This document shows positions 14,755 through 33,746 of a stretch of DNA of 64,000 bases, one piece after another. A program made the position numbers and the translations under genes. Location: contig CAYOEG010000002.1 of NCBI GenBank assembly GCA_964403155.1, forward strand, positions 8,147-72,146. Reading direction: 5' to 3'. The DNA comes from an uncultured Candidatus Saccharibacteria bacterium (lineage in GTDB: Bacteria > Patescibacteriota > Dojkabacteria > SC72). The notes below the pieces were generated by a model. The model did no database searches and had not been told where the DNA came from. It saw nothing but the letters and a program-made list of their open reading frames with translations. Positions within the stretch are counted from its first letter, which is position 1. Each line of letters opens with the position of its first letter.

Positions 14755-15161
14755 AGATCCGCAAGTGAGAAATCTAATGCTTTACCATTGTATCCATACG
14801 TTACCTCATCTGAATTTATGAGAAGATAATATCGTTGAGTTGTCAAAAGTTTTTCCAACTTTACCTCGTGTGTTTTTGATCTTACCTTATTAGTCTGATC
14901 CACTCCTACCATTACCAAATTATCCCTATTATCACCATACTGGACAAAACCAACACACTCCTTTTTGGTACTCCATTTAACAATCGCAGTGTATTCCTGC
15001 TCTCCTTTTTCGATAAAAATATTGTAAGGTACACAATCTCGTTTCAAAGAAGCAAAGATATTCGAACCAAAAGTATTTTTTACAAACAATAAAGAGAGGG
15101 AAAGCCCCACTATGAAAATACCAAAAAAACCTGTTATTAAAAAAATCTTAGTTCGCTTCAT
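14751..15161 (-). CDS. hypothetical membrane-anchored protein (Fn3-like beta domain?)
   Basis: N-terminal TM then about 100 aa predicted extracytoplasmic; overlaps the upstream gene by 14 nt, so likely an operon. Confidence 0.4.
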   Translation of the reverse strand: MKRTKIFLITGFFGIFIVGLSLSLLFVKNTFGSNIFASLKRDCVPYNIFIEKGEQEYTAIVKWSTKKECVGFVQYGDNRDNLVMVGVDQTNKVRSKTHEVKLEKLLTTQRYYLLINSDEVTYGYNGKALDFSLADL

Positions 15162-15564
15162 TACTCTCGATCAAAATATAACTTTCTTTTATAGACGAAT
15201 GCTCTCCATCTGATACACGAATCTTTAACTTGTACTGCCCTTCACTCCCAACAGAAGGGACTCCGTATACTTTTTTTCCATCAACAGACATCCAACTAGG
15301 AGCATTAATCAAAGTAAGTGCCAAATCCTCATCAGAAGTATCACCATCTGAGCACTCCGCAATATATGCGTACTCTTCCCCTACAACACCCACAGCTGTA
15401 GGAGAATTTACAATGTATGGGACATCTACAATGTTACTTTTCCCTAACACTGTCTCTGTATCACTAGTATCCTTGTTTCTCTCCATCAGAATAATTCCTA
15501 CTGTACCAATTATCAAAACAACAAAAACACTGAGAACAACTTTAGCTTTTCTACTAGCATCCAT
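15148..15564 (-). CDS. membrane-anchored protein with He_PIG/cadherin-like domain
   Basis: N-terminal TM; PTAVGVVGEEYAYIAECSDGDTSDEDLALTLINAPSWMSVDG matches the putative-Ig (He_PIG) consensus. Confidence 0.45.
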   Translation of the reverse strand: MDASRKAKVVLSVFVVLIIGTVGIILMERNKDTSDTETVLGKSNIVDVPYIVNSPTAVGVVGEEYAYIAECSDGDTSDEDLALTLINAPSWMSVDGKKVYGVPSVGSEGQYKLKIRVSDGEHSSIKESYILIESNEAN

Positions 15565-15659
15565 AATACGAGTTTAACACAAAAAAATATGTTTACAAAC
15601 AATAGATTTACATATATAATACTCCTAGTTTAAGCAGTTTATATTATCCATTGTAGGAA

Positions 15660-15956
15660 ATGCCAAATTTAAAAACATCAATAAAAGATTTAAGAAAGAA
15701 CAAAAGAAGAGAAGTTGTTAATGACAGATTAAGAGAAAGATCTAAAAAATCTGTTAAGAAATTTAACACACTTCTTTCTGATAACAATATTGATGAAGCA
15801 AAGGCTACATTGAAGCATATATATAAAGTCCTTGACAAAGCAGCTAAGAAAAATGTTATAAAAGATGGTAAGGCAGACAGATTAAAAGGTCGTCTTACTA
15901 AAAAATTAAACACTATTGCCCAAAATAATGTCAAAGCTGCTAACAAGAGCGCTTAA
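15660..15956 (+). CDS. rpsT: 30S ribosomal protein S20
   Basis: Highly basic 98-aa protein, PNLKTSIKDLRKNKRRE N-terminus and helical KA-rich body typical of S20. Confidence 0.75.
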   Translation: MPNLKTSIKDLRKNKRREVVNDRLRERSKKSVKKFNTLLSDNNIDEAKATLKHIYKVLDKAAKKNVIKDGKADRLKGRLTKKLNTIAQNNVKAANKSA

Positions 15957-16479
15957 AATATCTCTAGCACCAGCAATATTGCTAATTGCGGGGAAATTTC
16001 TTGGTATTTTAGGAACAAGTCTCGCATACAATCTTAATTTTCAAATCAGTAATGATCTTGGAACGAATTTTTCGGTCCAGATATTCTTTCCAGATGCTTC
16101 AATGACTCTCTTTGTAAACTCAATTTCCAATATTGCCATGATTGCCTTCATAGCAATCCCATTAGCGATATTCATAACTAAAACATATCTCTACAATACC
16201 GTTGCTAAGAACCCACGAACCATTATTAAAATGACTCGCTTCAACATACTCAAATGGATAACTAGCAAGGATACCTCTTTTCTTAAAATATTCATCTGGT
16301 GTGCATTCCTTTGGATAGCATGCGGCATAACTATCGCACATACACTACAAGGAAATACATATGAATGGGTCGGAATAATAGCTGGAAGTCTAGCACTCCT
16401 AGCATCTCTGTTTACAATCAAGACATTTGAGATTGAAACTGATAATATATATCCAACAGAACATAACAGATATTACTAA
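15916..16479 (+). CDS. hypothetical polytopic membrane protein (start uncertain: TTG at 15916 or ATG at 15928/16102)
   Basis: Four or more predicted TM helices; the ORF overlaps the rpsT 3' end, so the true start is probably downstream. Confidence 0.35.
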   Translation: MPKIMSKLLTRALKISLAPAILLIAGKFLGILGTSLAYNLNFQISNDLGTNFSVQIFFPDASMTLFVNSISNIAMIAFIAIPLAIFITKTYLYNTVAKNPRTIIKMTRFNILKWITSKDTSFLKIFIWCAFLWIACGITIAHTLQGNTYEWVGIIAGSLALLASLFTIKTFEIETDNIYPTEHNRYY

Positions 16480-16480
16480 G

Positions 16481-17050
16481 ATGGTAAAAGAGAGAACACA
16501 AAAAGCAAAGAATTTCTTTTCTGTAATTGTAGAACCTTTTGCAATGGGCTTACTTGCCCTACTCTTCATAATCCCCACAATCACAGTGATGAATCTTTCT
16601 CCAATTACTAAAAAATTGGAGCAATTAAATGTTTTGGGTGTAAATACTGCATCTTCTGTCTCTGTCACATTGGTTGGTGGTAAACATGAGGTGTTTTCAG
16701 AAGAAGATCTTGTTAAAGTATCGAGCTCAGAATACAACTATGCTGTAAGATTAAGTAAAAGAGCAGCAGACAGTTACTCAAAACCGATATTAGAAATCGA
16801 AAATAAAACATCTGAGGTGCAAGAGATCTCTTTCCTGGGTCAAACAAAAACTTCTACTCAGTCAAATATAAGCCTTCAGATTGATCAAAAAGCATATAGA
16901 CTAGAGGATGACAAAGGATTCACATACCCACATAGTATTTTCTTAGCTCCTACTGAGAAGGTAATTGTATTCCTCTCTGTTGAAAATCTCACAGGTATTC
17001 AGTTCTCAGAAACTTTCGATCTTCAAGTTAAGGTTGTAGAAAACCTTTAA
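16481..17050 (+). CDS. hypothetical membrane-anchored protein
   Basis: ATG at 16481 directly follows the upstream stop (TAA 16477-16479); N-terminal TM (FAMGLLALLFIIPTITVM); the listed ORF from 16427 is a 5' over-extension. Confidence 0.4.
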   Translation: MVKERTQKAKNFFSVIVEPFAMGLLALLFIIPTITVMNLSPITKKLEQLNVLGVNTASSVSVTLVGGKHEVFSEEDLVKVSSSEYNYAVRLSKRAADSYSKPILEIENKTSEVQEISFLGQTKTSTQSNISLQIDQKAYRLEDDKGFTYPHSIFLAPTEKVIVFLSVENLTGIQFSETFDLQVKVVENL

Positions 17051-18901: not shown

Positions 18902-19938
18902 TGATCAAGAGTATAAAGTTAACCAATTTCAGAAGATTCAAAGATTTAAATATTGAGATATCTAAGGATATTGTTGTATTACACGGGGATAACGCGAAAG
19001 GAAAAAGCACAGTTCTGGAAGCTTTACATCTAGTTACTAATGGTGATTCTCCATGGGCATCTTCTGACGAATTTGTAAGTAATGATCAAGGAGAAGAAGA
19101 TAGGTATGCAAGAGTAGAGATTACGACAGATGAACACACATATGCGTTTTTCAAAAATCATGATAGAAGGATTTGTAAGATTGATAACCAGAACACCACT
19201 CCTAAGAAATTTTTCCAGAGTAATGCTTCTACAATTTTTAATCCTGAACAGATTGAGATTTTAATGATTTCTCCATCACATAGGAGAGATTTTCTTGATG
19301 AAGTTATATGTAAGATCGATTATGAATACAATGATACTTTGGCAAAATTCAGAAAGGTGTTAAGACAGAGGAATGCATATTTAAAGAAGCTAGCTAAGAA
19401 ATTCTATGATCAGGGGATTATTGCACGTAATGATACTCAACTTAATTTCTGGACTAATGAGTTTGTAGAATTAGCAAAGGTTATTCAAAAAAAGAGACTT
19501 GAGTTAATTGAGAAGCTTTCTGATGGGGATTTTAGTATTGAATATGTTAAATCAAATAAGGAAGATATGGATGTTGCAGTAGAAGAAGCGAAGAAGAAGG
19601 ATATTGTTACTGGGTGTTCTAATGTGGGTCCTCAGAGGGATGATTGGGATATTATTGTTGAAAAGAATATTAAGAAGTTTGGGTCTAGGGGTGAGAAGAG
19701 GTTGGCTATCGGTAATTTGATTTTCAGGATTCAGGATGTTTTGAATAATGAGTTAGGGTTCTACCCTATTCTTTTGTTAGATGATATTGCTTCGGAGTTG
19801 GATAAACAGAATACTGGGAAGATTTTTGGCGAGAGGCATATTAGTAAGCAACAGACGTTTATAACGATTGTTAATTATAAAGAATTACCTAAAGAGATTG
19901 TTGAAAAAGCACAGTTGATTGATTTGAATAAGATCTAA
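18901..19938 (+). CDS. recF: DNA replication and repair protein RecF (SMC-like ATPase)
   Basis: LTNFRRF..., Walker A GDNAKGKST, Walker B ILLLDDIASELD; 345 aa; start overlaps the lepA stop (TAATG). Confidence 0.75.
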   Translation: MIKSIKLTNFRRFKDLNIEISKDIVVLHGDNAKGKSTVLEALHLVTNGDSPWASSDEFVSNDQGEEDRYARVEITTDEHTYAFFKNHDRRICKIDNQNTTPKKFFQSNASTIFNPEQIEILMISPSHRRDFLDEVICKIDYEYNDTLAKFRKVLRQRNAYLKKLAKKFYDQGIIARNDTQLNFWTNEFVELAKVIQKKRLELIEKLSDGDFSIEYVKSNKEDMDVAVEEAKKKDIVTGCSNVGPQRDDWDIIVEKNIKKFGSRGEKRLAIGNLIFRIQDVLNNELGFYPILLLDDIASELDKQNTGKIFGERHISKQQTFITIVNYKELPKEIVEKAQLIDLNKI

Positions 19939-19952
19939 GTAATCGAGCACAC

Positions 19953-19987
19953 ATCCATACATGGGCTTTATTCTCCCATGTATGGAT
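19953..19987. terminator. bidirectional intrinsic terminator between convergent recF and aspS/asnS
   Basis: Perfect 13-bp inverted repeat ATCCATACATGGG-ctttattct-CCCATGTATGGAT followed by TATTTGGGG. Confidence 0.6.
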
Positions 19988-19996
19988 TATTTGGGG

Positions 19997-21316
19997 CTAT
20001 GGAGTCAATCGCTTCACTCCTCTATAAATATATGTAACCTCTCTAACATTCTTAACCTCAAGAAGTTGCATTAATATTCTTGTCGGGCCAGGGGCAAAAC
20101 CCCCATGAGGAGGACATCCATATTCAAAGAATTTTAGATAACTTCCAAAATCCTCTAGCTTGAATCCCTTTTCCAGAATTTGTGCTTTAAGAACCTCGTA
20201 TCTATGTTCCCTGATAGCACCACTAGTAATCTCTAACCCCTTATACAGCAAGTCGAAGCTTTTAGTAAATTGAGGCCTACCCTCATATCTCATACTGTAA
20301 AATGCTCTCGAAGAAGTTGGATAATCATAGATGAAAACGAATCCATGAGAATACTTCTCTTGAATGTATTGACCTAAGGCCCTTTCCTCTTCTGGGGATA
20401 TATCATCAACCTTTTCACTCTTAACTCCAAGCTTTTTCAGAAGACTTTTTGCCTGTGTGAAAGACATTCTTTGGAAAGGCATCTTCGGGATCTTTACTTT
20501 CACCTTGTACTCTTCTTGTATCTCCTTTGAATGGCTATGCTTAATCTCCTTTAGCATTTTTACAATCATTTTTTCTTCTTCCTGCAAAAGCTCTTCAACG
20601 GATTCTACGAACGATAGCTCAACATCGTACATTGTAAACTCGGTATCGTGCCTTGAGGTAAAAGATGGGTTTGCTCTAAATACAGGACCTACCTCAAAAA
20701 CTTTTTCTAGCCCAGAAGCCATCGCCATTTGCTTGTATAGTTGAGGAGATTGAGCAAGAAAAGCTTTCCTTCCGAAGTATTTTATCTCGAAAAGTTCTGA
20801 ACCAGACTCTGTTGATGTAACAGATGTCTTAGGAGAGTGTATCTCAATATATCCCTCTTCTATACAATGCCTTCTGAAGGCACTTTCCATTGTAGTCCAA
20901 ATCTTAAACACCAAACTACTTCTAGGTTTCCTCAGATCTAACCATCTGTAATCCAATCTTTTGGAGAGTGTTGTTTTACCATCAGATTTTTCAACTACTG
21001 GAATAGGTAGAGACGCCATTGGTTCCGAAAGGATTTTTACCGATTCTACTTCTATCTCATATCCCGATGGAGCTTGTTTTTCCTGTTTTACTAAGCCCGT
21101 AAGTTCTACTACAGATTCTATCTTTATCTGCTTCAAACTCTTAACAAGTTCTTTTTTCAGGACAACACACTGGATCGCTCCCGTAATATCTCTGATAATT
21201 AGAAATCCTATTGCGCCTTGCATTCTTACTGTTTGTACCCAGCCCTTAAGCAATATTCTTTCTCCAATCTTTTCTTTCATTTCTTTTGTATATGTTCTTT
21301 TCATTTTTATATTCAT
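19997..21316 (-). CDS. archaeal-type aspartyl/asparaginyl-tRNA synthetase (class IIb)
   Basis: OB-fold N-domain; KRLDYRWLDLR; class II motifs FRANPSFTSRHDTEF and GGFAPGPTRILM; 439 aa. Confidence 0.85.
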   Translation of the reverse strand: MNIKMKRTYTKEMKEKIGERILLKGWVQTVRMQGAIGFLIIRDITGAIQCVVLKKELVKSLKQIKIESVVELTGLVKQEKQAPSGYEIEVESVKILSEPMASLPIPVVEKSDGKTTLSKRLDYRWLDLRKPRSSLVFKIWTTMESAFRRHCIEEGYIEIHSPKTSVTSTESGSELFEIKYFGRKAFLAQSPQLYKQMAMASGLEKVFEVGPVFRANPSFTSRHDTEFTMYDVELSFVESVEELLQEEEKMIVKMLKEIKHSHSKEIQEEYKVKVKIPKMPFQRMSFTQAKSLLKKLGVKSEKVDDISPEEERALGQYIQEKYSHGFVFIYDYPTSSRAFYSMRYEGRPQFTKSFDLLYKGLEITSGAIREHRYEVLKAQILEKGFKLEDFGSYLKFFEYGCPPHGGFAPGPTRILMQLLEVKNVREVTYIYRGVKRLTP

Positions 21317-21319
21317 AAA

Positions 21320-21640
21320 ATATTAATTAGTAAATTTGTAAGTTGATAATATGTCCTCCTGTCGGAGGATTATTTTTTCTATTATTTAAATTGTGTATAT
21401 AACAAAAAACACCCATGTACTAAAATCATTAAATAATTTCAGTACAAGGGTGTTTAGATACACGGTGCCACCTTGTTTTAGATAAATATTACTATCTATC
21501 TCTTACAAACCTACTCTTGGTGAAGATATAGGTTTAGAGCTATTACAGGCTCACCTGTGAGGTTCTACTTACTTTCGCTTTCTTCCTCAAGCTCATCTGT
21601 GTTTGCAGAATCATTGCTGTATATAAAGATTATACTACTT
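21320..21640 (-). promoter_or_regulatory. T-box riboswitch leader of the aspS/asnS gene (promoter TATAAT about 21628, T-box sequence 21461-21477, terminator 21401-21455)
   Basis: Minus strand reads AAACAAGGUGGCACCGUG, matching the T-box consensus AAUUAGGGUGGNACCGCG. It sits immediately 5' of a long imperfect hairpin (AACACCCuUGUACUgAAA...UUUaGUACAuGGGUGUU) followed by UUUUUUGUU, about 85 nt upstream of the ATG. GGUG of the T-box can pair with CACC of the terminator 5' arm to form the antiterminator. Confidence 0.6.
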
Positions 21641-21686
21641 TTATTAAGAAACTGAAAATAAAGGACTATTTAAAAGTGAATCTCAA

Positions 21687-22736
21687 CTACGAGTTTTTCT
21701 TTGCATTGATAATTTTTATTGGTGCATGAAGCATCATACAACGTATACTACCCTGCCTAATTAATGGATAATACAACATTGGAATCTGTGTCGTGTAAAC
21801 TTGATCTTCCCCAACTATTTCATTTAAAAGATCAAGAAGTATTTCATCTCCACTTGTAACAATAACACTACCATTTGCAAATTGCTCAAAATTTAGGGCA
21901 CAGGGAAGGGATTGATGCTCTCTTTGTACTATGATCGGGATAACATCAATCTTATCACATGCTTCCTTTATAACTTCCAAATATTTCCCATATGGGGGTT
22001 TATTTGTAGAAACATAATTCTCATCCAAGAGGAGATAGTCCCGCCTATCTTTTCCCCTAATAAAAGCTGATACTCTGTCTAGATGATCCGTCTGGAAATA
22101 TTTTTCCGTACCAGATTGGATATCAATTTCCGCCGTCAATGGTGCTGGAAGGTAAGCAAAGTCAAATCTATCAGACAAGTTTTTAATATCATTAATATAA
22201 CTTTCTCTTGATTCACAAAACCATCTTGGATCCGTAGTTAGCACTTTCTTTCCTACTCTTAAAACTCTCCCCCCTTCTCCGAGTGGAGATCTTTTGCATG
22301 ATAAATCCGGAATGGACAAATTAGATTCAGAGCTAATATAGACATCATCATCAAAATTGACAAACATATCTCTAGGAAAGAATACTCCTCCTATATCATC
22401 GTCTAGTGCAACACCACGAATCTCCATACTTTTCATAATTCTGATAACAAGCTGTTCATCCATCCATTCTTTATGAGAGATAATTATTCGAAAAGGTATA
22501 TCCATCCGTTTCATCGTGTATAAAATAGAAGTGTATTCCATTAAAAACTTTTCTGCCAAAAAATCCCTATCCATAGAAACTTCAGACAGAGCGGTTACCC
22601 ATTGTTCCGATCCAACAGGTACGATAAATACATCCTTCTTGCTCTCCTCTTTTACAGGTTCTTTAAAGATTGGGGCGGAAAATAATATAACTTCATTGTT
22701 TGGAACAGGATCCTTTGAGTCTAGCGGTTCTCCCAT
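21687..22736 (-). CDS. hypothetical protein, possible pentein-fold (amidinotransferase/arginine-deiminase-like) hydrolase
   Basis: C-terminal GSIRCMMLHAPI resembles the catalytic-Cys motif (GGxRCMSxP) at the C-terminus of pentein enzymes. The N-terminal region has no recognisable motifs. Confidence 0.3.
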   Translation of the reverse strand: MGEPLDSKDPVPNNEVILFSAPIFKEPVKEESKKDVFIVPVGSEQWVTALSEVSMDRDFLAEKFLMEYTSILYTMKRMDIPFRIIISHKEWMDEQLVIRIMKSMEIRGVALDDDIGGVFFPRDMFVNFDDDVYISSESNLSIPDLSCKRSPLGEGGRVLRVGKKVLTTDPRWFCESRESYINDIKNLSDRFDFAYLPAPLTAEIDIQSGTEKYFQTDHLDRVSAFIRGKDRRDYLLLDENYVSTNKPPYGKYLEVIKEACDKIDVIPIIVQREHQSLPCALNFEQFANGSVIVTSGDEILLDLLNEIVGEDQVYTTQIPMLYYPLIRQGSIRCMMLHAPIKIINAKKNS

Positions 22737-22777
22737 AGTACTACAGTATAAGTCACAGGAGTCTTAAATACAATATC

Positions 22778-23119
22778 TCACAACCTTTTACAGAAGGCCT
22801 CATCATACACCCTATACATCTTCTGTATACCATTCTCTAATTTGTAATAATGGAATATATAGAATACCTCTACAATAAATATTATTCCTGTAAATACTAC
22901 CATTACCCAAGAGAAATATATCAATATAATAATAAATCCAAACATTAATAACATTGCAAATAACATAGTAACTAAAAGATGTATTAATCTCTCATGTTGC
23001 ATAAATTGAATATGGGAGAGAAAATCAGATCTATACGTTTCTAAATCACTTTTACTCAAATCCTTATTAGATAGTTTAGATTTAATATATTCTAAATAGG
23101 TATTCATATAGTCGATCAT
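22778..23119 (-). CDS. hypothetical small membrane protein (2 TM)
   Basis: Hydrophobic C-terminal half (LLVTMLFAMLLMFGFIIILIYFSWVMVVFTGIIFIV). Confidence 0.4.
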   Translation of the reverse strand: MIDYMNTYLEYIKSKLSNKDLSKSDLETYRSDFLSHIQFMQHERLIHLLVTMLFAMLLMFGFIIILIYFSWVMVVFTGIIFIVEVFYIFHYYKLENGIQKMYRVYDEAFCKRL

Positions 23120-23241
23120 AGAAATGCAGATTAAGATTATTTACCATTATACCTTTAAATATTATTCAGAGGTTATTGCAAAGCCCTATAATTATTCTAT
23201 AATAAATAAACTCCCCAAGAATAATTTATCTATTTAACACC

Positions 23242-23703
23242 ATGCATTTAGATAATAATACTCTCGAAAGGGAATATACTCCAAACCTCCAATCTATCTC
23301 TTTCGGAATGATAAATAAAACTGAGGAGATACAACATTTAAATGAACTTGAGCTATATTTCGTACTTGAATCCTGTAATCGTGAGATGTGGTTTACACTT
23401 TGTTCTCAAGGAGAGCCCAAATCCGAAGATGATATAGAAAGAATTATCAACGAAATAGTCAGTCTTAATAATATTAAACAGGTATGTCTTTTACAAACTG
23501 CAATGTTTGGAACTGATGCACACAAATCAGAAACCGGCGTAACCGTAGAAACAGGTCCCTTATTTGCGAAATGGTATGCTTTCTATAATAACCATTGCAA
23601 AGACACATTCGAGAATGTACAACCATACATTGAAGCCAAGAAATCTGGCAAAGATATATCTCAATATTTACCCGAAGGAGACTGGAAAGATTACGTGGTC
23701 TAA
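23242..23703 (+). CDS. hypothetical protein
   Basis: 153-aa ORF with no recognisable motif; convergent with the NTase gene. Confidence 0.35.
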   Translation: MHLDNNTLEREYTPNLQSISFGMINKTEEIQHLNELELYFVLESCNREMWFTLCSQGEPKSEDDIERIINEIVSLNNIKQVCLLQTAMFGTDAHKSETGVTVETGPLFAKWYAFYNNHCKDTFENVQPYIEAKKSGKDISQYLPEGDWKDYVV

Positions 23704-24462
23704 CTACCCTATTATCTTCTTTCTAAAATCCCCATCAAAGAACTCAATTTTCCCTCTCTTGTTATTATTCCATAACCTCGCTATCTCAGGTCTATGTAAA
23801 GATATAATCATAAACAAAAGTTGAAGAATGAAGAATTTGAAATTAACAATCTTGAGAAACCAATTACTCCTCTTAGAAACAAATACCCTACTCACTAACA
23901 ACTCACCCTTAACACCATATACCTTCCTTAACCAATCATTCTGAGAATAGATATAGTTAAGATATTTTTCATTGTATATCGGAATCAAATACATCAACTC
24001 ATGAAAATTAAAAATATCACTCTCAAACACCAAATCTCTTTCCTCGCAAATCAAATTGACACAAAACTTATCCTTAACCACATCCCCATTTCTAATCCTC
24101 CTAATCCTATGATGAAAAAGATTTTTTAATGTAATAATTCCACGATATATCCAAGAAGTATAGTTCTTAACAACAACAAACACATCAATATCATCCTCTT
24201 CCTTTGCAAAACCTGCACCCACAGAACCAGAAATACCAACAAACTTTAATAACCCAAAAGCCTTAAGATATTTAATACCATTCTTCGCAATATCAACCTT
24301 CCTTACAACCTCAACATTCTTAACCTCTTCATCGAAAGATTGATCATTACTCTTAACAAAACCTTTTCCCCAGATATATTTAGCCTGTTCTCTTGAAACT
24401 CCTAATCCCATCCTCAATCTAAACTTCCCTAGTTCTAACAATGCTTTTGTTTCTACTCCCAT
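23704..24462 (-). CDS. Pol-beta-superfamily nucleotidyltransferase domain protein
   Basis: GISGSVGAGFAKEEDDIDVFVVV fits the hG[GS]x9-13Dh[DE]h NTase motif; 252 aa with a helical/hydrophobic C-terminal half. Size and layout are reminiscent of ANT(4')-type or minimal NTases. Confidence 0.5.
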   Translation of the reverse strand: MGVETKALLELGKFRLRMGLGVSREQAKYIWGKGFVKSNDQSFDEEVKNVEVVRKVDIAKNGIKYLKAFGLLKFVGISGSVGAGFAKEEDDIDVFVVVKNYTSWIYRGIITLKNLFHHRIRRIRNGDVVKDKFCVNLICEERDLVFESDIFNFHELMYLIPIYNEKYLNYIYSQNDWLRKVYGVKGELLVSRVFVSKRSNWFLKIVNFKFFILQLLFMIISLHRPEIARLWNNNKRGKIEFFDGDFRKKIIG

Positions 24463-24537
24463 AGAATATTATACCATCTAATAATTTTCTTAATATTCTG
24501 CTAAACTTTAGGTTAGAAAAATAGTAAAATCTGCCTT

Positions 24538-25329
24538 ATGAGACAACATCCAATACCACAAAATATATTAGATGTAGAGTTCAAACTCTTTACAAAGTTT
24601 ACACTTAAAGAATTCGCATACCTTGCCATTGGTTTAGGAATCGGAGGAGTATTGGTATACCTAATGGTAGGACACACAATTCCAGTAATAGTTGGGATCC
24701 CTGGCCTCATACTCTCTGCAGGTGCAGGAATATTCCTGGGATTAGTACCAATAAATGATCAAGATGCAGATGTATTCATAAAAAACTATGTAAATGCAAT
24801 AACTACACCAACACAAAGAGTCTGGTTAAGTAAAGAGATGCAGGAAGACAGAAACAAGCCTTCTGTAAAACCAGGTGCAGACGGGAAATTAGTACAAAAA
24901 AGCTTTAAAGATAAAGTGACCGAGATAATTGGTGGAAATAAGCAAATAGTAGTAGAAGAGACAGCTCCAACGATACCTGCAAATAATACCCCCGTATCAT
25001 TATCTGAGTTAACAATATCAGACAGTAACAGAAACAAATATGAATTTAGTATCCAGAACTTAGAAAAATTACCTGGGAATATCAATATCTGGCTCTATAC
25101 CGGAGAAATGACCCCATCCCCAAATGTCATAACCTATATGAAGGATGAGAATGGTAAAATACTCTACGCAAACAGAACAGGGAACAGTGGCTATTTCCTA
25201 ACTAACAAGATATGGCCAAAGGGGATATATCAATTAGAGTTTGTGCATCCTCAGTTCAGATTCCCAAAGGTAAAGATCATAATCGAGGAAGAAAGTCATA
25301 AATTACCGATTAAAATAAAGAACATTTAA
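24538..25329 (+). CDS. VirB3/PrgI-like two-TM membrane protein with a C-terminal extracytoplasmic domain (T4SS-like module)
   Basis: Two adjacent TM helices (FAYLAIGLGIGGVLVYLMV / IVGIPGLILSAGAGIFLGLV) at the N-terminus; immediately precedes and is translationally coupled to the VirB4-like genes. Confidence 0.45.
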   Translation: MRQHPIPQNILDVEFKLFTKFTLKEFAYLAIGLGIGGVLVYLMVGHTIPVIVGIPGLILSAGAGIFLGLVPINDQDADVFIKNYVNAITTPTQRVWLSKEMQEDRNKPSVKPGADGKLVQKSFKDKVTEIIGGNKQIVVEETAPTIPANNTPVSLSELTISDSNRNKYEFSIQNLEKLPGNINIWLYTGEMTPSPNVITYMKDENGKILYANRTGNSGYFLTNKIWPKGIYQLEFVHPQFRFPKVKIIIEEESHKLPIKIKNI

Positions 25330-25330
25330 A

Positions 25331-25981
25331 GTGGATCAAAATACAAGGGCAAGAGCTATTGCCTCAACACAAGATGCATTAGAAGTTAGAGATATCCGAG
25401 AGGATCTTGTTGTAACTAAAAGCGGAAGTGTGGCAATAGTAATTCAAACGTCCGCCATTAACTTTGACCTTCTAGCCGAGTATGAACAGGATAACAAAAT
25501 ATATGCCTTTGCAGGACTTCTAAATTCACTCAATTTCCCCATTCAAATCTTGATCCGAACAAAGCGAATAGATATCACTTCATATGTTGACTATCTTAAA
25601 TCACAAAACGAAAGAGAGATGAGCGAAGGGTTAAGAAAACAATTAGAAATCTACACCCTATTTATACAAAACCTCATCGTACAGAATGATGTCTTAGACA
25701 AAAATTTCTTCATAGTAGTACCTTACAACCCTGGGCTTACTTTAAACGATGTAGGTTTCCTAAAAAAGAACAGTAAAAAAACAAAAGAAGAGGAAGAAAA
25801 ATATCAGAACATGGAGATAGACCAATTAGTGGAGAAAGGTAAAATATACCTCTATCCTAAGAGAGATCATATACTCAAACAACTCTCAAGAATGGGATTA
25901 TTTGGTCATCAATTAAACAATACTGAATTACTTTCTGAATTCTATACAATATATAACCCCGAGGAAGAAGAAAATGCCTGA
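25331..25981 (+). CDS. VirB4 N-terminal-domain-like protein (separate ORF, translationally coupled)
   Basis: GTG start 1 nt after the upstream stop. LVVTKSGSVAIVIQTSAINFDLLAEYEQDNKIYAFAGLLNSLNFPIQILIRTKRIDI matches the N-terminal segment of Gram-positive-type VirB4 (PrgJ/TcpF/Orf16 family). Overlaps the next ORF by ATGCCTGA. Confidence 0.45.
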   Translation: MDQNTRARAIASTQDALEVRDIREDLVVTKSGSVAIVIQTSAINFDLLAEYEQDNKIYAFAGLLNSLNFPIQILIRTKRIDITSYVDYLKSQNEREMSEGLRKQLEIYTLFIQNLIVQNDVLDKNFFIVVPYNPGLTLNDVGFLKKNSKKTKEEEEKYQNMEIDQLVEKGKIYLYPKRDHILKQLSRMGLFGHQLNNTELLSEFYTIYNPEEEENA

Positions 25982-28403
25982 AGAACTAAACAACTACAAC
26001 CGAACACTTGATAGCAAAATCTCGCAAGAGCTTAAATCTCAGACTGAGAAACTACAGTCCGTCGGAGAGAAATATCAAACATTCAGACAAGAACTAAAGA
26101 AAGAGATGGAGAATGGCAAAGCGAAAGAGGAAAAAGATAAATTCAATGACCCCCTGAAAACAGATGAAGAACCAAAACCAAAGAAGAATCCAATTTTGAA
26201 GCTCCTAGATAAGCTAGCTGAAAAAATAAATGGAAAAAAATCTCTTGAAGAAACAACTACTTCGGGAAACAAGATTGAAGATGATGATATAACAATGCTG
26301 GATAAAAATATGTCCATCAAAGATATCATTGCACCACTGGATATGGAACTCGACTTTAACGACATGCAGATGGGGGACTATTTCTTCAGAGTATTTAAAG
26401 TCTCTGGTTACCCTCGTATCGTTGGACCAAATTGGTTATCACCAATTATAAATTTTGAGCATTCCTTACGTATTAGTACCTTTTACTACCCAGTTGAATC
26501 TAAAGTCATTCTCGAAAAACTTAAGCGAAAAATCGGAGAGATGGAAGCCACACTCTACTCTCAAATAGAGGATCGAAAAGTTGTAGATCCTACACTTAAA
26601 GTTGCGCTCTCTGATGCACAACAGTTGCAAGACTCAATTGCAGAAGGTTCAGAGAAATACTTCCACTACGGAATGTACATCACAATATATGCACCTAACA
26701 AGGATCTATTAGAGAAATATTCTAGAAATGTAACTTCGACCCTAGCTGCGATGAATGTGGTTGCCATACCAGCAATTTTGCAACAAAATGAAGGATTTCT
26801 GAGTACACAACCTTTGGGATTAGACAAACTATACTTCACTAGGAACATGGATACCACCTCCCTTGCCACAACCTTCCCATTCGTGACTTCAGAGTTAACA
26901 ATGGAGAAGGGAATTATGTATGGCGTAAACATGCATAACAAAAGCCTGGTCATATTTGATAGATTCCAGTTAGAGAATGCAAACACCGTAGTATTTGCAA
27001 AAGCAGGTGCAGGTAAAAGCTATTTTGTAAAACTAGAAATTCTTAGGAGTCTAATGCTGGGAACCGAGATCATCATTATAGACCCAGAAAGGGAATATGA
27101 CGAACTTTCCAAAGCAGTAAACGGACTTTACATCTCATTCTCACAGGACAAAGGAAGCAAGATGAATCCATTTGAACTCTCAGGAATTAAAGACGAGGGT
27201 GATGACGAGCTAAGAATGAAACTACTTGCATTACATGGTTTCTTCAAAATACTTTTCGGGGGACTTACTAATGTTGAAGAATCCATTTTAGACAAAGCAT
27301 TAATACTCACTTACAGAGAGAAAGGTATTACCTTTGACCCTGCAACACAGACGAAACAGCCTCCTCTACTTGAAGATATGTACAAAGTACTTAAGGGTAT
27401 GGCCGAGAATGAAGCTCATGATTTAGCCAGAAGAATGGAGAAATATATAATCGGTAGTGGTGCAGGAATATTCAACGAAGCAAGTAATTTTGAAATTAAT
27501 AATCCATTTACAGTATTCAGCATCAGAGACTTACAAGAAGAACTAAAACCTCTCGCTATGTACCTAATGCTTGATTTCATATGGACAAAAATTCGAAAAG
27601 ATCAGAAGAGGAGAATCCTTGTTGTAGATGAAGCTTGGTATATGATGCAAAGTTTGGACTCCGCAAATTTCATGTATTCAATAGCTAAACGTGCAAGAAA
27701 GTATTATCTCGGCTTAACAACAATTACTCAGGATGTCGCAGATTTCCTAAATAATGATATGGGGAAGGCGATTATATCTAACTCTTCAATGCAGGTGCTT
27801 ATGAAACAAAGCCCCTCTGCTGTAGATAAGCTACAAGCAGTATTTAATCTGTCTGATGGAGAGAAGAATTTCTTACTAAGTTGCGATAAAGGACAAGGAC
27901 TGTTCTTTGCAGGGTCAAACCATGTAGGCATACAAGTTATATCTAGCCAAGCAGAACACGAGCTTATAACCACAGATCCTAAAGAACTAGAGCAACGCCG
28001 TGCAAGGTCTGGCATGACTGAGACAAGAACCATAGAAGAATTAGCCCAGATATTTGAACCTCCAGCAGAGCAACAACCTATGAGAGATGGGAACTCCTTG
28101 GAAAGGCAACAACAGGTAATACGGGGAGCAATATACAAACGAAGAGATGATCAGGTACAGATTGAAAAAGAAAGAGAACAGTATCAAAAAGAATTAGAAG
28201 AAAGATTAAGACAACAGGAGCTTGAACTTAACCCAGAAAAGAGAATATCCCAACAAACTTTTCTTGATAGTTTAAAAGAGAATACTGTTTCTGGGCAAGT
28301 TATAAAATCAAGGGAAGATATACAAAAGGGTCGAACACATATAACTCCACAAGGCCCAGTTTCAAGCTATACAAATAATGGGACAGGCAACAACCAACAA
28401 TAA
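25974..28403 (+). CDS. VirB4/TraC/TrbE-family T4SS ATPase
   Basis: Walker A AKAGAGKSYFV, Walker B RILVVDEAWYM, conserved N-domain segment YFFRVFKVSGYPRIVGPNWLSPI; a KE-rich low-complexity insert of about 110 aa at the N-terminus; 809 aa. Confidence 0.8.
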   Translation: MPEELNNYNRTLDSKISQELKSQTEKLQSVGEKYQTFRQELKKEMENGKAKEEKDKFNDPLKTDEEPKPKKNPILKLLDKLAEKINGKKSLEETTTSGNKIEDDDITMLDKNMSIKDIIAPLDMELDFNDMQMGDYFFRVFKVSGYPRIVGPNWLSPIINFEHSLRISTFYYPVESKVILEKLKRKIGEMEATLYSQIEDRKVVDPTLKVALSDAQQLQDSIAEGSEKYFHYGMYITIYAPNKDLLEKYSRNVTSTLAAMNVVAIPAILQQNEGFLSTQPLGLDKLYFTRNMDTTSLATTFPFVTSELTMEKGIMYGVNMHNKSLVIFDRFQLENANTVVFAKAGAGKSYFVKLEILRSLMLGTEIIIIDPEREYDELSKAVNGLYISFSQDKGSKMNPFELSGIKDEGDDELRMKLLALHGFFKILFGGLTNVEESILDKALILTYREKGITFDPATQTKQPPLLEDMYKVLKGMAENEAHDLARRMEKYIIGSGAGIFNEASNFEINNPFTVFSIRDLQEELKPLAMYLMLDFIWTKIRKDQKRRILVVDEAWYMMQSLDSANFMYSIAKRARKYYLGLTTITQDVADFLNNDMGKAIISNSSMQVLMKQSPSAVDKLQAVFNLSDGEKNFLLSCDKGQGLFFAGSNHVGIQVISSQAEHELITTDPKELEQRRARSGMTETRTIEELAQIFEPPAEQQPMRDGNSLERQQQVIRGAIYKRRDDQVQIEKEREQYQKELEERLRQQELELNPEKRISQQTFLDSLKENTVSGQVIKSREDIQKGRTHITPQGPVSSYTNNGTGNNQQ

Positions 28404-28616
28404 CAATTTAAATCTATTAGAAGAATCAAACTACTTGGTTACAAAAGCAGTTTCAACTTCTAGTATCCCTCAACAAAGAGTCTCTTCTGATTTAGAAATG
28501 TTAGAGAAAGCCGAGAAGAAAAGTCTGTATAGAGCTAACATAGCAAAAGGTAAAAAAGACCCACAGGTATATATTGCACTTAGTGCATTAAGACTTTCTA
28601 ATCCATTTAAAGGATA

Positions 28617-29795
28617 CTAACTCAATGGACCCTGATCTTGTGGAAGATAATGCTTTAAATTATCCGCCGTTATAATTATTGGAAGCGTTGCTCCCTCTAC
28701 AACATCTCTAGCAACAGCTCTAACCATACCTGCGATATTACGTTCCAACTGCCTAATACCAGCGTCAAAACCTACAGGACGAATAATCATTGGCCAGATC
28801 GTATCATCAATTCTAATAAGTTCTTCTGAAAGATTAAGCCCCTTAAGAACCCTTGGAAATATATATCTCTTCGCAATAACCGTCTTCTCCTCATCTGTAT
28901 AACTAGTAAATCTAATCACCTCCACCCTATCCAATAAAGCCGCAGAAAGACCCCCAAGATTATTTGCTGTACATATGAAGAAAATATTAGAGAGATCAAC
29001 TGGGAAATCTAAATAATGATCCCGGAATGCTCTGTTTTGTTCAGGATCAAGGATTTCTAATAATGCTGCCATAACATCATTAAGTAATCCCGCATTACCA
29101 CTTGCTTTTTCAATTTCATCAAGAAGAACAACTGGGTTCATAGTCCCACTTCTCATCAATGCCTTAATAATTTGCCCAGGCTCCGGATCCACAGCATAAC
29201 GAGGAGTACCACGCAAAGTTCTTACGTCCCCTATTGCACCAAGGGAGATTCTTACAAATTTTCTTCCCATGGCTTGTGCAATAGATTTGGCAATGGAAGT
29301 CTTACCCACACCCTGAAGTCCTACAAAAAGAAATACTGGTGATTTAGAGAAATTATTTTGTGAGGGTATTATCATTTCCGGTCTTTCCGATAAAGAACCA
29401 ACCGAAGAAGGCATAGCAACATATTGATTGAGATTCTGCCTACTCTCGAGCTGCATCGCTGCAAGATAGTCAAGAATAGCGTTCTTAATACCATCCATAC
29501 CATAATGAGTAGAATCCATTATCTCCTTAGCATTCTTAATATCAAGATTGTCCTTGGATAACACTCCCCAAGGAATAGAAACTACGTAATTTACATATTT
29601 GCTTACATTCTCATACTCTGAGCTATACACTCCCTTCTTTGCTATCCTTTCTAATCTCTCAATACTCGAAAGAACTTCATTTTTGAGATCAATCGGGGCA
29701 TTAGAATTTACAAGCTTGTTCTTAAGTAACAAGATGTCTGAGACATTATCATCCATAGTAATATCTTGTGGTATGGGCGTATTAATATAATCCAT
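28617..29795 (-). CDS. Lon-like AAA+ ATPase module lacking the N-terminal substrate domain and the C-terminal protease domain
   Basis: Near-canonical Lon AAA+ sequence: LFVGLQGVGKTSIAKSIAQAMGRKFVRISLG, LLDEIEKAS, LEILDPEQNRAFRDHYLDFPVDLS, TANNLGGLSAALLDRVEVIRFTSYTDEEK. It ends at ITADNLKHYLPQDQ, exactly where Lon proteins begin the protease domain. No Ser-Lys protease domain adjacent. Confidence 0.75.
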   Translation of the reverse strand: MDYINTPIPQDITMDDNVSDILLLKNKLVNSNAPIDLKNEVLSSIERLERIAKKGVYSSEYENVSKYVNYVVSIPWGVLSKDNLDIKNAKEIMDSTHYGMDGIKNAILDYLAAMQLESRQNLNQYVAMPSSVGSLSERPEMIIPSQNNFSKSPVFLFVGLQGVGKTSIAKSIAQAMGRKFVRISLGAIGDVRTLRGTPRYAVDPEPGQIIKALMRSGTMNPVVLLDEIEKASGNAGLLNDVMAALLEILDPEQNRAFRDHYLDFPVDLSNIFFICTANNLGGLSAALLDRVEVIRFTSYTDEEKTVIAKRYIFPRVLKGLNLSEELIRIDDTIWPMIIRPVGFDAGIRQLERNIAGMVRAVARDVVEGATLPIIITADNLKHYLPQDQGPLS

Positions 29796-29900
29796 ATGGG
29801 CAGTAAATATATATGTAGAGTGTATATGCTAGATTAAATTATTGCAAATAAATTTGCTCCGTGATAGCCTTAATATGAATAATATTAAACTGTCCATGAG

Positions 29901-30662
29901 ATGAAAAAATCATTCCCAATATTCCTATCTTTGTTAACTATCTTGTTACTACCATTTAGAGTTTTTGCTGCAGATTTAACTACAATCCAAGAAACTGTAT
30001 CTGATTACCTTCCGTATATTTTAATAGGCGGTGCTGTGATTCTTTTAATAAGTATCATTGGTATCTTGTTAGGAAAGAAGAAAAACAAAAATACAACGTC
30101 AGAACCGATCGAGATTGCACAACCTGCAACACCACAACCTATTGCAACAGAGGAAGTAAAAACTCCTGTGATGGAAGAAACTCCTGAAGTTACTCCTGCT
30201 GTCAATATGGATACGATCTCAAATAATTTGTACTCACCAACACCAGAAGAATTACCAGAGAGACCCCCTATTCAAGAGACCCTTGGAGCTACACCACAAC
30301 CCGTACCAGAAACTAGTGATCAAAGTTCCGATCTTCAAGCAATTTTACAACAAGAATCTTCATCCGAACCTATGACACCTGTGACAGATCAGGCCTTTAA
30401 TTCTGTACCAACTCCTGAAGTAAAACAATCTCCTTTGCCAGAATCTTCCACAATATCTCCTATGGATAACACCTTGTCTACTATGCCAGAGCAATCTCCA
30501 GTTCCACCTATCGATACTACTACAAGTACTACTCCTGATTTACAACAGTTTGTGAATAATCAAGTTGCAGAAGTTCCACCAATGGCGGCTCCAGTAGCAG
30601 AAACACCTGCTTCAACAGATACAACAACACCAGCTCCAACGGGAACTCCTAGTATTGTTTAA
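29901..30662 (+). CDS. membrane protein with signal peptide, TM helix and Pro/Thr/Glu-rich disordered tail
   Basis: MKKSFPIFLSLLTILLLPFRVFAA signal; TM ILIGGAVILLISIIGILLG; then about 190 aa of PT/PE-rich low complexity. Confidence 0.5.
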   Translation: MKKSFPIFLSLLTILLLPFRVFAADLTTIQETVSDYLPYILIGGAVILLISIIGILLGKKKNKNTTSEPIEIAQPATPQPIATEEVKTPVMEETPEVTPAVNMDTISNNLYSPTPEELPERPPIQETLGATPQPVPETSDQSSDLQAILQQESSSEPMTPVTDQAFNSVPTPEVKQSPLPESSTISPMDNTLSTMPEQSPVPPIDTTTSTTPDLQQFVNNQVAEVPPMAAPVAETPASTDTTTPAPTGTPSIV

Positions 30663-31950: not shown

Positions 31951-32526
31951 CTACATTAATCCATTCTTAAAGTTTTTCCAGTATTCACTACCCTTCACAG
32001 TCATCGTGCCAACATACTTATTACCCAAACCATCAGTACCATACTTCCTATCACATTCCTGATCCAAAAGCTCAAAAATTATCTGGGCAATCTTCATCCC
32101 TGGATATATCTTGATTGGCAAAGGGGAAAGATTAATCAAATGCAATGTTAATCTTAGAGAATTACCTGGGTCAAGAAAACCAGCGGTAACATGAATCGCA
32201 AGCCCTAATCTTCCAAGAGAACTTTTACCCTCTAACCTTGCAATGTGTTTTCCATCAACACCTGTAATTTCTTTAACATTTGCTAAAACAAATTCGCCTG
32301 GGTTTAAGGTATAACCTTCTTCTTCATCTACTTCAACATTTTGCATAAGGTTATCGATCGGTTTTTTAACATCAATAACCCTATCCTTCTCTTTACTGAA
32401 AATTAGAAAATGACTATCTAAGTGTAAATCATATGATGCAGGTTGAAGATATTTTTCATCAAAAGGTTCTATCTTTATCTCACCTGTCTTTAATTTCTCT
32501 CGTATCGTTTTATCTGCTAGTATCAT
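31951..32526 (-). CDS. dcd: dCTP deaminase
   Basis: MILADKTIREKL N-terminus; dUTPase-like fold motif GFLDPGNSLRLTLHLIN; 191 aa. Confidence 0.8.
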   Translation of the reverse strand: MILADKTIREKLKTGEIKIEPFDEKYLQPASYDLHLDSHFLIFSKEKDRVIDVKKPIDNLMQNVEVDEEEGYTLNPGEFVLANVKEITGVDGKHIARLEGKSSLGRLGLAIHVTAGFLDPGNSLRLTLHLINLSPLPIKIYPGMKIAQIIFELLDQECDRKYGTDGLGNKYVGTMTVKGSEYWKNFKNGLM

Positions 32527-33746
32527 ATTCCTGGAATTGGGTAATTTTTTGCGAATTCTTTTATTTCAGCTTTTATTTTTTCCAAATTATCATCATTAGG
32601 ATTTTTTAATGCCCTATCAATAAACTGAGCTACTGTTTCCATTTCATCTTCTTTCATTCCTCTAGTAGTTAATGCTGGGGTACCTATTCTAATACCTGAT
32701 GGATCCCATGGTTTTCTTTGATCGTTCGGGATTGCATTTTTATTTACTGATATATTTGCTTTTTCAAGAAGATCCGAAGCTTCACTACCAGAGAGATTGA
32801 CACTTTTAACTGTATCTACAAGGAAAAGATGATTATCTGTCCCACCAGATATCACCGAATATCCTAGCTCTCTCATTCCGTTTGATAGTGTTTTTGCATT
32901 TAAAACTATCTGCTTTGAATATTCTTTGAATTCAGGTTTCAATGCCTCTCCCAATGCGACTGCTATCCCTGCGATTGTATTATTGTGTGGGCCTCCTTGA
33001 AGTCCTGGGAATACTGCTTTGTCTATCCTCTCTCCTAGTTCCTCTTTGCACATTACGATAGCTCCTCGTGGCCCTCGTAGTGTCTTATGGGTAGTTGTGG
33101 TCACCACGTCGGCAATACCAACAGGGTTAGGATATTCTCCCGTAGCAACTAGCCCTGCAACATGAGAGATATCAGCTGCAAAATACGCCCCTACTTCATC
33201 TGCTATTTTTCTAAATTCATTCCAATCTATGATTCTAGAATATGCCGAGAACCCTGCCCATATTAATTTAGGTTTATGTTCTCGTGCTAGTTTTCTAACT
33301 TCTTCATAATCTATGTATCCATCCTCTTTAACATCATAGTTAACCGAATTGTAGTACTTCCCAGAAAAAGAAATCTTGTACCCATGGGTTAGATGTCCAC
33401 CAGCATCTAATGCCATTCCCATAACAGTATCTCCTGGATTTACTAGTGCCATGTATACGGCATGATTTGCAGGAGAACCTGAATATGGTTGAACATTTAC
33501 ATGTTCTGCTCCAAACAGCTCTTTTGCTCTAGCTATAGCTTCGTTCTCTATTTCATCAATATATTGATTTCCACAGTAGTAACGCTTCCCTGGGTATCCC
33601 TCAGAATATTTATTCGTCAGAATAGAACCAATAGATTCTAATACAGATTCACTAACATAGTTCTCAGATGCTATTAATTCAATTCCTTCTATTTGTCGTT
33701 TCTTTTCTAGATCAAGTATGGACGAGATTTTACTATCTTCTATCAT
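32523..33746 (-). CDS. glyA: serine hydroxymethyltransferase
   Basis: LIASENYVS, YSEGYPGKRYYCG, TTTTHKTLRGPRGA motifs. Confidence 0.95.
   Translation of the reverse strand: MIEDSKISSILDLEKKRQIEGIELIASENYVSESVLESIGSILTNKYSEGYPGKRYYCGNQYIDEIENEAIARAKELFGAEHVNVQPYSGSPANHAVYMALVNPGDTVMGMALDAGGHLTHGYKISFSGKYYNSVNYDVKEDGYIDYEEVRKLAREHKPKLIWAGFSAYSRIIDWNEFRKIADEVGAYFAADISHVAGLVATGEYPNPVGIADVVTTTTHKTLRGPRGAIVMCKEELGERIDKAVFPGLQGGPHNNTIAGIAVALGEALKPEFKEYSKQIVLNAKTLSNGMRELGYSVISGGTDNHLFLVDTVKSVNLSGSEASDLLEKANISVNKNAIPNDQRKPWDPSGIRIGTPALTTRGMKEDEMETVAQFIDRALKNPNDDNLEKIKAEIKEFAKNYPIPGI

Follow-up and report, generated by a model that had tools for sequence, protein, structure and literature searches.

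A conserved VirB4 secretion core and a neighbouring strain-specific insertion in a Dojkabacteria chromosome

When the gene for a VirB4 secretion ATPase lies among poorly annotated neighbours in a genome of the candidate phyla radiation, is the cluster an accessory, possibly mobile element, or does it belong to the chromosome of the lineage? The question is raised by a 64-kb stretch of contig CAYOEG010000002.1 (hereafter the window) from an uncultured bacterium of the Dojkabacteria (candidate division WS6, Patescibacteria). Between aspS, which encodes an aspartyl-tRNA synthetase (AspRS), and sufS, the interval 21687-30662 contains ten open reading frames (ORFs), which a first-pass annotation had described as a single accessory block of 9 kb set between housekeeping genes. 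All ten ORFs are found at the coordinates and on the strands given there, and their orientations are indeed mixed. We conclude, with a probability of about 0.85, that the interval is not one island but a composite of two unrelated things: a block at 23704-30662 that is inherited vertically and occupies the same chromosomal place throughout the Dojkabacteria, and a small insertion to its left. Overall, the locus is an ordinary member of a known secretion system next to a small insertion hot spot.

A first line of evidence is gene order. A database search with the VirB4 protein returned 7516 matches, the best 120 of which are 69-91% identical to it; all of these 120 are Patescibacteria/Dojkabacteria-type proteins, many of them named WS6, Dojkabacteria or Patescibacteria. 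Nine loci from metagenomes or metagenome-assembled genomes (MAGs), with VirB4 69-90% identical, share one common gene order. On the left it runs through holA, a gene for a protein of 583 amino acids (aa), two small genes, rpsT, two further genes, lepA and recF. After recF come a nucleotidyltransferase-like (NTase-like) gene on the minus strand, the genes for PrgI, TrsD and VirB4, a small ORF, a gene on the minus strand for a Lon-type AAA+ module (here called LonAAA) and a gene for a PT-rich protein; on the right follow dcd (in some loci preceded by sufS and followed by thyX), glyA, folD and an ABC gene.

For a broader sample we took one genome per species of the Genome Taxonomy Database, which gave 80 loci with VirB4 57-90% identical, and compared the proteins of the window with them by tblastn. 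Fifty-six of the 80 loci span recF to LonAAA. PrgI, TrsD and VirB4 are each present in all 56, and the NTase-like gene in 45; the 11 loci without it form one subclade, in which only 53-185 bp separate recF from prgI. The small ORF after virB4, which encodes an 80-aa protein that we call p80, has a tblastn match in 42 of the 56, and the PT-rich protein is detectable in 16, with a gene-sized gap of 1-1.6 kb at the same place in many of the others. LonAAA was found in 71 of the 80 related loci. By contrast, aspS and the genes for the 349-aa and 153-aa proteins at the left end of the interval are present in none of the 56 loci, and the gene for the 113-aa protein between them in only four. The first-pass annotation had proposed a comparison of synteny with related genomes; for 23704-30662 its outcome is that the order from recF to sufS/dcd recurs across the Dojkabacteria species representatives.

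A second line of evidence is constraint on the proteins. Median identities are 69.7% for VirB4, 70.0% for TrsD and 63.8% for LonAAA, compared with 74.9% for lepA, 71.6% for glyA and 57.9% for recF. Measured against the nearest relative, the ratio of nonsynonymous to synonymous substitution rates (dN/dS) is 0.005 for TrsD, 0.017 for VirB4, 0.025 for p80, 0.043 for LonAAA and 0.065 for PrgI, while the housekeeping comparators lepA, recF and glyA have ratios of 0.024, 0.045 and 0.049; the NTase-like gene (0.136) and the gene for the PT-rich protein (0.173) are more relaxed. These ratios are rough because dS is greater than 1, which reduces the weight that they can bear.

Base composition was measured as the tetranucleotide distance to the whole window, expressed as a percentile among windows of the same length. 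GC content is flat over the whole window, and the block at 23704-30662 falls at the 5th percentile of tetranucleotide distance, among the most typical in the window; the whole interval 21687-30662 falls at the 58th. A check of composition had been suggested for the interval, and only 21687-23703 stands out: this segment is mildly atypical, with a GC fraction of 0.336 against 0.363 for the window and a tetranucleotide distance at the 93rd percentile, a deviation no bigger than that seen over rpoBC.

These results bear directly on the proposal that the whole stretch from 21.7 to 30.7 kb is an accessory, possibly mobile-derived island that combines a secretion or uptake ATPase, an NTase and an unfoldase. 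The mixed orientations and the many unannotated genes (Pfam recognizes nothing in the 349-, 113-, 153-, 216-, 80- and 253-aa proteins) would fit such an island, as would the origin of the VirB4 family in conjugative elements (PMC12102498) and the true variability of the three genes at the left end. We nevertheless consider it very unlikely, given that the gene order is kept in every one of the loci spanning recF to LonAAA over a range of VirB4 identity that reaches down to 57%, that the composition is typical and that purifying selection is strong. Marks of mobility are also missing, which agrees with the first-pass annotation: the window encodes neither tRNA nor tmRNA, and we found no meaningful flanking repeat, no integrase, transposase or relaxase among the ORFs of 19.9-30.7 kb, and no meaningful defence or phage match. 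Conserved gene order across the lineage together with typical composition had been named beforehand as the outcome that would refute accessory status, and since this is what we found for the secretion ATPase, the NTase and the unfoldase, the accessory reading fails for the seven genes at 23704-30662. It stands for the remaining three, those for the 349-, 113- and 153-aa proteins at 21687-23703. The idea of a single 9-kb block falls with it, since its aspS boundary lies inside a strain-specific insertion while the right-hand 7 kb are conserved in the lineage.

What does the conserved block encode? At its centre, prgI (24538-25329, plus strand), trsD (25331-25981, plus), virB4 (25974-28403, plus) and the p80 gene (28378-28620, plus) form a tightly packed string, with a distance of 1 nucleotide (nt) from the end of prgI to the start of trsD and overlaps of 8 and 26 nt at the next two junctions. 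A search of profile libraries for components of type IV secretion systems (T4SS) had been recommended, and two of the proteins pass their cutoffs. The PrgI/VirB3-like protein matches PF12666 over residues 5-95 with 29.4 bits (cutoff 27); it has two or three hydrophobic segments at residues 26-72 and a C-terminal extension of about 150 aa. VirB4 scores 381 bits against NF045971, a CD1110-family model with a curated cutoff of 325, matches PF19044 at E 7e-28, and, searched as a profile, finds the solved VirB4 structure 4ag5 at E 4.7e-54. Its Walker A motif (AKAGAGKS, at about residues 342-349) and Walker B motif (ILVVDE, residues 548-553) are intact, and both are invariant in the orthologs.

The 216-aa protein between them had been counted as one of two VirB4 ORFs. 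It is neither a second VirB4 nor a split one; judged by its sequence, it is a TrsD-type protein and a remote homolog of the N-terminal region of VirB4. It matches the NCBIfam model NF041427 at E 1.8e-7 and positions 102-267 of a VirB4 model at E 8e-6, and its orthologs carry precomputed matches to PF26593 (TraC-like). Several results tell against this assignment. Both model matches lie below the curated cutoffs, so that membership is sub-threshold; hhalign comparison of TrsD with VirB4, which used shallow profiles, gave no similarity; the TrsD profile has no match in the PDB; and a single-sequence AlphaFold2 prediction reached a pLDDT of only 37, with no usable fold.

The combination of these three genes has been described before. 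Quinonero-Coronel et al. 2025 (PMC12102498) report a chromosomal, relaxase-less module of PrgI, TrsD and VirB4 in Patescibacteria; VirB4 was present in 2417 of 3035 genomes, and the Patescibacteria proteins are monophyletic within the monoderm MPF-FATA class. According to the same source, the component most often associated with VirB4 is TrsD, PrgI/VirB3 usually lies next to it, relaxases are hardly ever found, transfer from one class to another is uncommon, and further components near virB4 (VirB6, VirB2-like pilins, VirB1 and VirB8) are frequent without being universal; Dojkabacteria genomes were included in the dataset. As far as can be told from family matches and gene order, prgI-trsD-virB4 in the window is this already-described T4SS core.

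The locus resembles the published Patescibacteria system in its adjacent chromosomal genes for PrgI/VirB3, TrsD and VirB4 and in the lack of a nearby relaxase, and its closest VirB4 relatives all come from the same class. It differs in that VirB6, a pilin array, VirB1 and VirB8 are not recognized near virB4, in the extra C-terminal part of about 150 aa on PrgI, and in the presence of p80 after virB4, of which we found no mention in the available portion of that paper. With the plasmid systems of the MPF-FATA class (PrgI/PrgJ of pCF10; TrsC/TrsD/TrsE of pGO1) it shares a VirB3-like gene immediately upstream of virB4, a VirB4 that passes the cutoff of the CD1110-family model and, in the case of pGO1, a TrsD-type protein. 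Unlike in those systems, the genes here are not on a plasmid or an integrative and conjugative element; they are fixed in a housekeeping region across the class, and their neighbourhood contains no relaxase, coupling protein, adhesin or cell-wall hydrolase.

The list of parts that could be recognized is short. Pfam scans of the large ORFs in the 64-kb window found no relaxase or coupling protein, and the sole FtsK-like protein of the window has a gamma domain and is a true FtsK. No VirB6, VirB8, VirB1 or VirB2-like pilin was recognized in the same 64 kb, which speaks against a complete secretion system encoded at this site, and the conserved unannotated neighbours yielded no further T4SS parts even in a Pfam scan at E values up to 1. 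Because these components and a coupling protein are unrecognized in the window, we infer a working secretion machine here from other Patescibacteria.

One could therefore read prgI-trsD-virB4 as the nonfunctional leftovers of an integrated conjugative element in decay, with only three recognizable T4SS genes left and the relaxase, coupling protein, VirB6 and VirB8 unseen in 64 kb. A relic of this kind is hard to reconcile with ATPase motifs that are intact and invariant, with dN/dS values of 0.005-0.065, or with the same chromosomal position across the whole class; nor did we see widespread frameshifting or loss of virB4 among Dojkabacteria genomes, or dN/dS values approaching 1. In addition, the components that appear to be missing are commonly undetectable by sequence in several classes of Patescibacteria (PMC12102498), and a homologous system is reported to be essential in a cultivated saccharibacterium (PMC12857230). 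Decay is thus highly improbable, even more so than the island, and we retain the reading of a conserved T4SS core.

From what is known of the VirB3 and VirB4 families, VirB4 would act as a hexameric ATPase tethered to the membrane by the VirB3-like PrgI, and would power assembly of, or transport through, a secretion channel, or both. That channel may serve interaction with a host cell rather than conjugation, a suggestion based on the lack of a relaxase or coupling protein nearby and on a review (PMC12857230) according to which the homologous system of Southlakia epibionticum (Saccharibacteria) is essential for growth on its host. TrsD and p80 are co-inherited partners of VirB4, and the NTase-like gene, LonAAA and the PT-rich protein are long-standing neighbours in the lineage rather than demonstrable parts of the machine.

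The string of core genes ends with p80, a hydrophilic protein whose gene overlaps the stop codon of virB4. Although it matches no family in Pfam (including a permissive scan) or PHROG, p80 is a real gene. A YLVT motif stands close to its N-terminus, its C-terminus has the invariant form ...AL(R/K/Q)LxNPF(K/R)G(Y/V), and an ORF ending in NPF[KRE]Gx directly follows virB4 in 73 of the 74 species loci that have enough sequence downstream.

Convergent to virB4 and p80 lies the gene for LonAAA (28617-29795, minus strand). The earlier description of this protein as an unfoldase without a protease proved accurate. It matches the lon model TIGR00763 over positions 249-567 of 795 (E 8e-95), as well as PF00004 (E 1e-19) and the Lon-type lid PF22667 (E 1e-7), and it aligns with the helical-bundle and AAA+ module of E. 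coli Lon (6n2i) at E 2.6e-67. The Walker A (residue 159), Walker B (222), sensor-1 TAN (276), LLDR (287) and GIRQLER (346) motifs are all present. Nothing in the protein matches positions 1-248 of the lon model, which represent the LAN domain, or positions 568-795, which represent the Ser-Lys protease domain, and the chain ends at residue 392, only 30 residues past the lid; from this coverage and this end point we take LonAAA to lack both domains. Compared with LonA proteases such as E. coli Lon (PDB 6n2i, 6u5z), it thus shares the helical bundle, the AAA+ module and all ATPase motifs, and differs in having neither the N-terminal substrate-binding domain nor the protease domain.

LonAAA is not the only protein of this kind. 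Short Lon-like ATPases of 340-510 aa score 300-470 bits with it, while canonical Lon scores about 250 bits, and by this measure LonAAA belongs to a wider set of short, protease-less Lon-like ATPases that resemble one another more than they do canonical Lon. Among the other matches of this search were proteins of 1000-1400 aa in which four to six stretches are matched, suggesting tandem Lon-AAA modules. A literature search for protease-less Lon found no paper.

Could p80 and LonAAA be dedicated parts of the secretion machine? The Dojkabacteria secretion core may have recruited them as two lineage-specific partners, p80 through co-transcription with virB4 and LonAAA from the convergent side. LonAAA would then recognize the NPFKG(Y/V) tail, or the substrates themselves, and as an unfoldase or coupling factor would unfold substrates or hand them over in place of the coupling protein. 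The idea can point to 65 related loci in which LonAAA is convergent to virB4-p80 with a gap between VirB4 and LonAAA of less than 400 bp, to the near-constant presence of p80 and its overlap with the virB4 stop, to the intact AAA+ motifs, and to the fact that no coupling protein was found in the window. We nonetheless regard it as unlikely. Since some 25 kb of sequence around these genes keep their order throughout the class, adjacency by itself is weak evidence that the NTase, p80, LonAAA or the PT-rich protein work with VirB4. In deep Dojkabacteria branches an ABC-type gene stands between p80 and LonAAA. Moreover, protease-less Lon homologs that are 47-48% identical occur in two other lineages next to rplY/pilM/groESL and next to alaS/UDG, with no virB4 nearby. 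These two contexts outside the class leave a functional link between LonAAA and VirB4 unsupported, and we rejected LonAAA as a conserved partner of VirB4; the reading of LonAAA as a long-standing neighbour is the one we keep.

The gap between virB4/p80 and LonAAA is itself a second variable junction of the block. In seven loci (L074, L077, L079-L082 and L084) it contains a gene of about 600 aa that is ABC-transporter-like, or epimerase-like in the case of L084.

The two outer genes of the block are the least constrained. At its left edge, the 252-aa NTase-like protein (23704-24462, minus strand) has a weak match to PF01909 (NTP_transf_2; E 5e-4, 20.8 bits against a cutoff of 21) and another to PF18765 (E 1.3e-3), and its Pol-beta fold motif, GS-x11-DxD, is intact at residues 79-93. 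At the right edge, the 253-aa PT-rich protein (29901-30662, plus strand) is fast-evolving; it combines a signal peptide, a single membrane helix and a disordered tail, with hydrophobic segments at residues 5-23 and 40-58.

The second component of the composite is the insertion. Aligned by blastn, the window and its nearest relatives (L005 and L010) are colinear at about 80-83% nucleotide identity, and the segment 19940-23733 of the window corresponds to just 32 bp there. In another relative (L011), the junction between recF and the NTase-like gene contains the 113-aa gene only; compared with it, the window has two extra segments, 19938-22797 with aspS, its T-box leader and the 349-aa gene, and 23153-23719 with the 153-aa gene. 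Other members of the sample (L012-L014, L007 and L008) have 2.2-4.3 kb of different cargo at this junction, where we found a GT1 glycosyltransferase, a 747-aa protein, an NTase paralog and an alpha/beta hydrolase. The 60 loci that have both recF and prgI fall into three groups by the distance between the two: 11 with 53-185 bp, 37 with 799-1007 bp and 12 with over 1.1 kb. The junction between recF and the NTase-like gene is therefore a spot of gene gain and loss in the closest clade.

Because none of the 80 related loci has the 349-aa gene, the 153-aa gene or, at this junction, aspS, and because the composition of the segment is mildly atypical, one might suspect that the 3.8-kb insertion is an assembly chimera. 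An independent sequencing run argues decisively for a real insertion: its contig (L173) is 100% identical to positions 19843-24166 of the window, spanning both junctions. Two further runs (L174 and L175) have the same aspS protein beside a 349-aa gene. A chimera is, of all the alternatives weighed here, the least credible.

Like a genomic island or integrative element, the segment 19940-23733 is absent from the closest relatives and sits at a junction with different cargo in sister species. It differs from such elements in lacking an integrase, a tRNA or tmRNA target and direct repeats (the repeats around it are short and at chance level), in the mildness of its compositional shift, and in that its cargo includes an aminoacyl-tRNA synthetase gene under the control of a riboswitch of its own. 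With no recombinase genes, repeats or tRNA target, entry by illegitimate recombination, or by homologous recombination within the population, would be the default explanation. The insertion would have brought a T-box-controlled extra AspRS, an orphan pentein-fold enzyme and an ORFan to a position beside the 113-aa gene, which sister species already carry.

A defence or phage origin was considered and rejected: searches with PADLOC defence models, which had been recommended for the region, gave only generic P-loop/AAA matches (mad8, DolB), and PHROGs gave nothing. The left edge of the insertion coincides with a hairpin at 19953-19987, in the gap that separates recF from the convergent aspS; its two 13-bp arms pair perfectly around a loop of 9 nt, and it is probably a bidirectional terminator. 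A scan for promoter and terminator consensus sequences yielded no more sites than shuffled sequence.

Among the cargo, aspS (19997-21316, minus strand), a gene of sporadic distribution, encodes by sequence a genuine non-discriminating AspRS (aspartate--tRNA(Asn) ligase), with 500.6 bits against NF003483 (cutoff 353). The window has two such genes, both archaeal-type and about 19 kb apart: the other one, 44% identical, occupies positions 1-1018 on the minus strand, where it is cut by the start of the window. The best non-self homolog of the inserted copy is only 77% identical, a Dojkabacteria protein encoded near gatCAB on a 792-kb contig, while VirB4 has five clusters of relatives at 88-90% identity. 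From this difference, the closest relatives probably lack the copy at 19997-21316. Their lack of it is deduced from database matches, and the relatives in question are incomplete MAGs, which must be held against the deduction. In 80 metagenome loci and on the 792-kb contig, aspS has no neighbour in common with the window, so no donor site can be identified.

Only the inserted copy of the two AspRS genes has a T-box leader (21400-21623, minus strand). The first-pass annotation had placed a T-box upstream of aspS, and the element is real, matching RF00230 at E 1.2e-9 in a local search; its score of 48.7 bits is nonetheless below the Rfam gathering score of 93, and no Rfam family reaches its gathering score anywhere in the window. 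In the alignment to the model, 72 positions of Stem I are replaced by 2 nt, and what is left is an ultrashort Stem I with a K-turn, a helix of 4-5 bp and a terminal loop of 6-7 nt, together with a classic terminator hairpin. In the window, the terminal loop contains the triplet AAC (Asn). In all 30 homologous leaders upstream of related aspS genes (loci L092-L171), the loop has one of two kinds of triplet at the same register: AAC in 15, the window among them, and GAC/GAT (Asp) in the other 15. The Stem I helix covaries, with 13 distinct versions among the 30 leaders. The loop triplet has the look of a specifier codon, alternating between the two tRNAs that a non-discriminating AspRS charges, and the leader in the window appears to read tRNA-Asn. 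Our literature search found no paper covering both T-box riboswitches and the candidate phyla radiation.

The 349-aa protein (21687-22736, minus strand) had been called a pentein-like hydrolase. At the level of the fold the call holds; a named family could not be given to it. No match was found in Pfam, NCBIfam, PADLOC or PHROG, and a profile of the family has no real match among PDB sequences. The protein has 11 homologs among 5.8 billion proteins, in unrelated gene contexts, and FPRD (residues 120-123), H218-L-D220-R and G-x-I-R-C333 are invariant in the family (11 sequences). The AlphaFold2 model has a pLDDT of 76.5 and a pTM of 0.81, and Foldseek matches it to the amidinotransferases SxtG and HsvA, agmatine deiminase, DDAH and ArgZ with probability 1.0 and TM scores of 0.41-0.50, at 9-16% identity to the solved pentein members. 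The predicted fold is thus shared with these enzymes, and the family has invariant Asp, His and C-terminal Cys motifs, in which D123, H218, D220 and C333 are candidate catalytic residues; no sequence family model fits. The model points to an orphan enzyme of pentein fold, of the type that modifies guanidino groups, outside any named family (ADI, agmatine deiminase, DDAH or amidinotransferase).

The remaining two genes of the segment are small. The 113-aa membrane protein (22778-23119, minus strand) has a hydrophobic core; the only tblastn matches to it, 70-88% identical, are in L007/L008 and L011-L014, and each of them sits in the junction of recF with the NTase-like gene. The 153-aa ORFan (23242-23703, plus strand) has no homolog in any fetched locus and no family match; it is called as a gene in the independent assembly L173.

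The rest of the window is ordinary chromosome, with dnaJ, alaS, ruvX, mltG, holA, lepA, recF, sufS, dcd, glyA and folD, and with groESL, murJ, dnaK-grpE-hrcA, rpoBC, ftsK and rodZ as further housekeeping genes. Two observations were made in this flanking sequence. First, many relatives, the nearest (L005, 16535-18172) among them, have thyX (531 aa) in the gap from dcd to glyA; it is absent from the dcd/glyA junction of the window (32522-32529) and of L007 and L008. Second, five conserved genes at 13003-17050, none with an informative family match, flank rpsT in virtually all Dojkabacteria loci. Their products are a protein of 583 aa that has hydrophobic segments at both ends, a polytopic membrane protein of 187 aa, a 207-aa protein, and two proteins of about 137 aa each with an N-terminal helix and Ig/FN3-like domains. 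Their predicted features are such that they could be envelope or secretion-related parts; a Pfam scan at E values up to 1 gave no link to known T4SS families.

The prgI-trsD-virB4 core was thus already known, and what goes beyond the portion of the published description available to us is p80 and the wider set of short Lon-derived ATPases. Three features of the locus are of interest for follow-up: p80, previously unremarked and conserved after virB4 in virtually all Dojkabacteria; a family of Lon-derived ATPases in which the protease domain has been lost; and the gain-and-loss spot beside recF, which in this strain has taken up a second AspRS gene under riboswitch control and the gene for a rare enzyme of pentein fold. 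For the candidate phyla radiation more generally, a VirB4 cluster in a genome should not be taken for a mobile element. In the Dojkabacteria the cluster is fixed and constrained like lepA and glyA, in keeping with published work that sees these reduced bacteria as dependent on the system.

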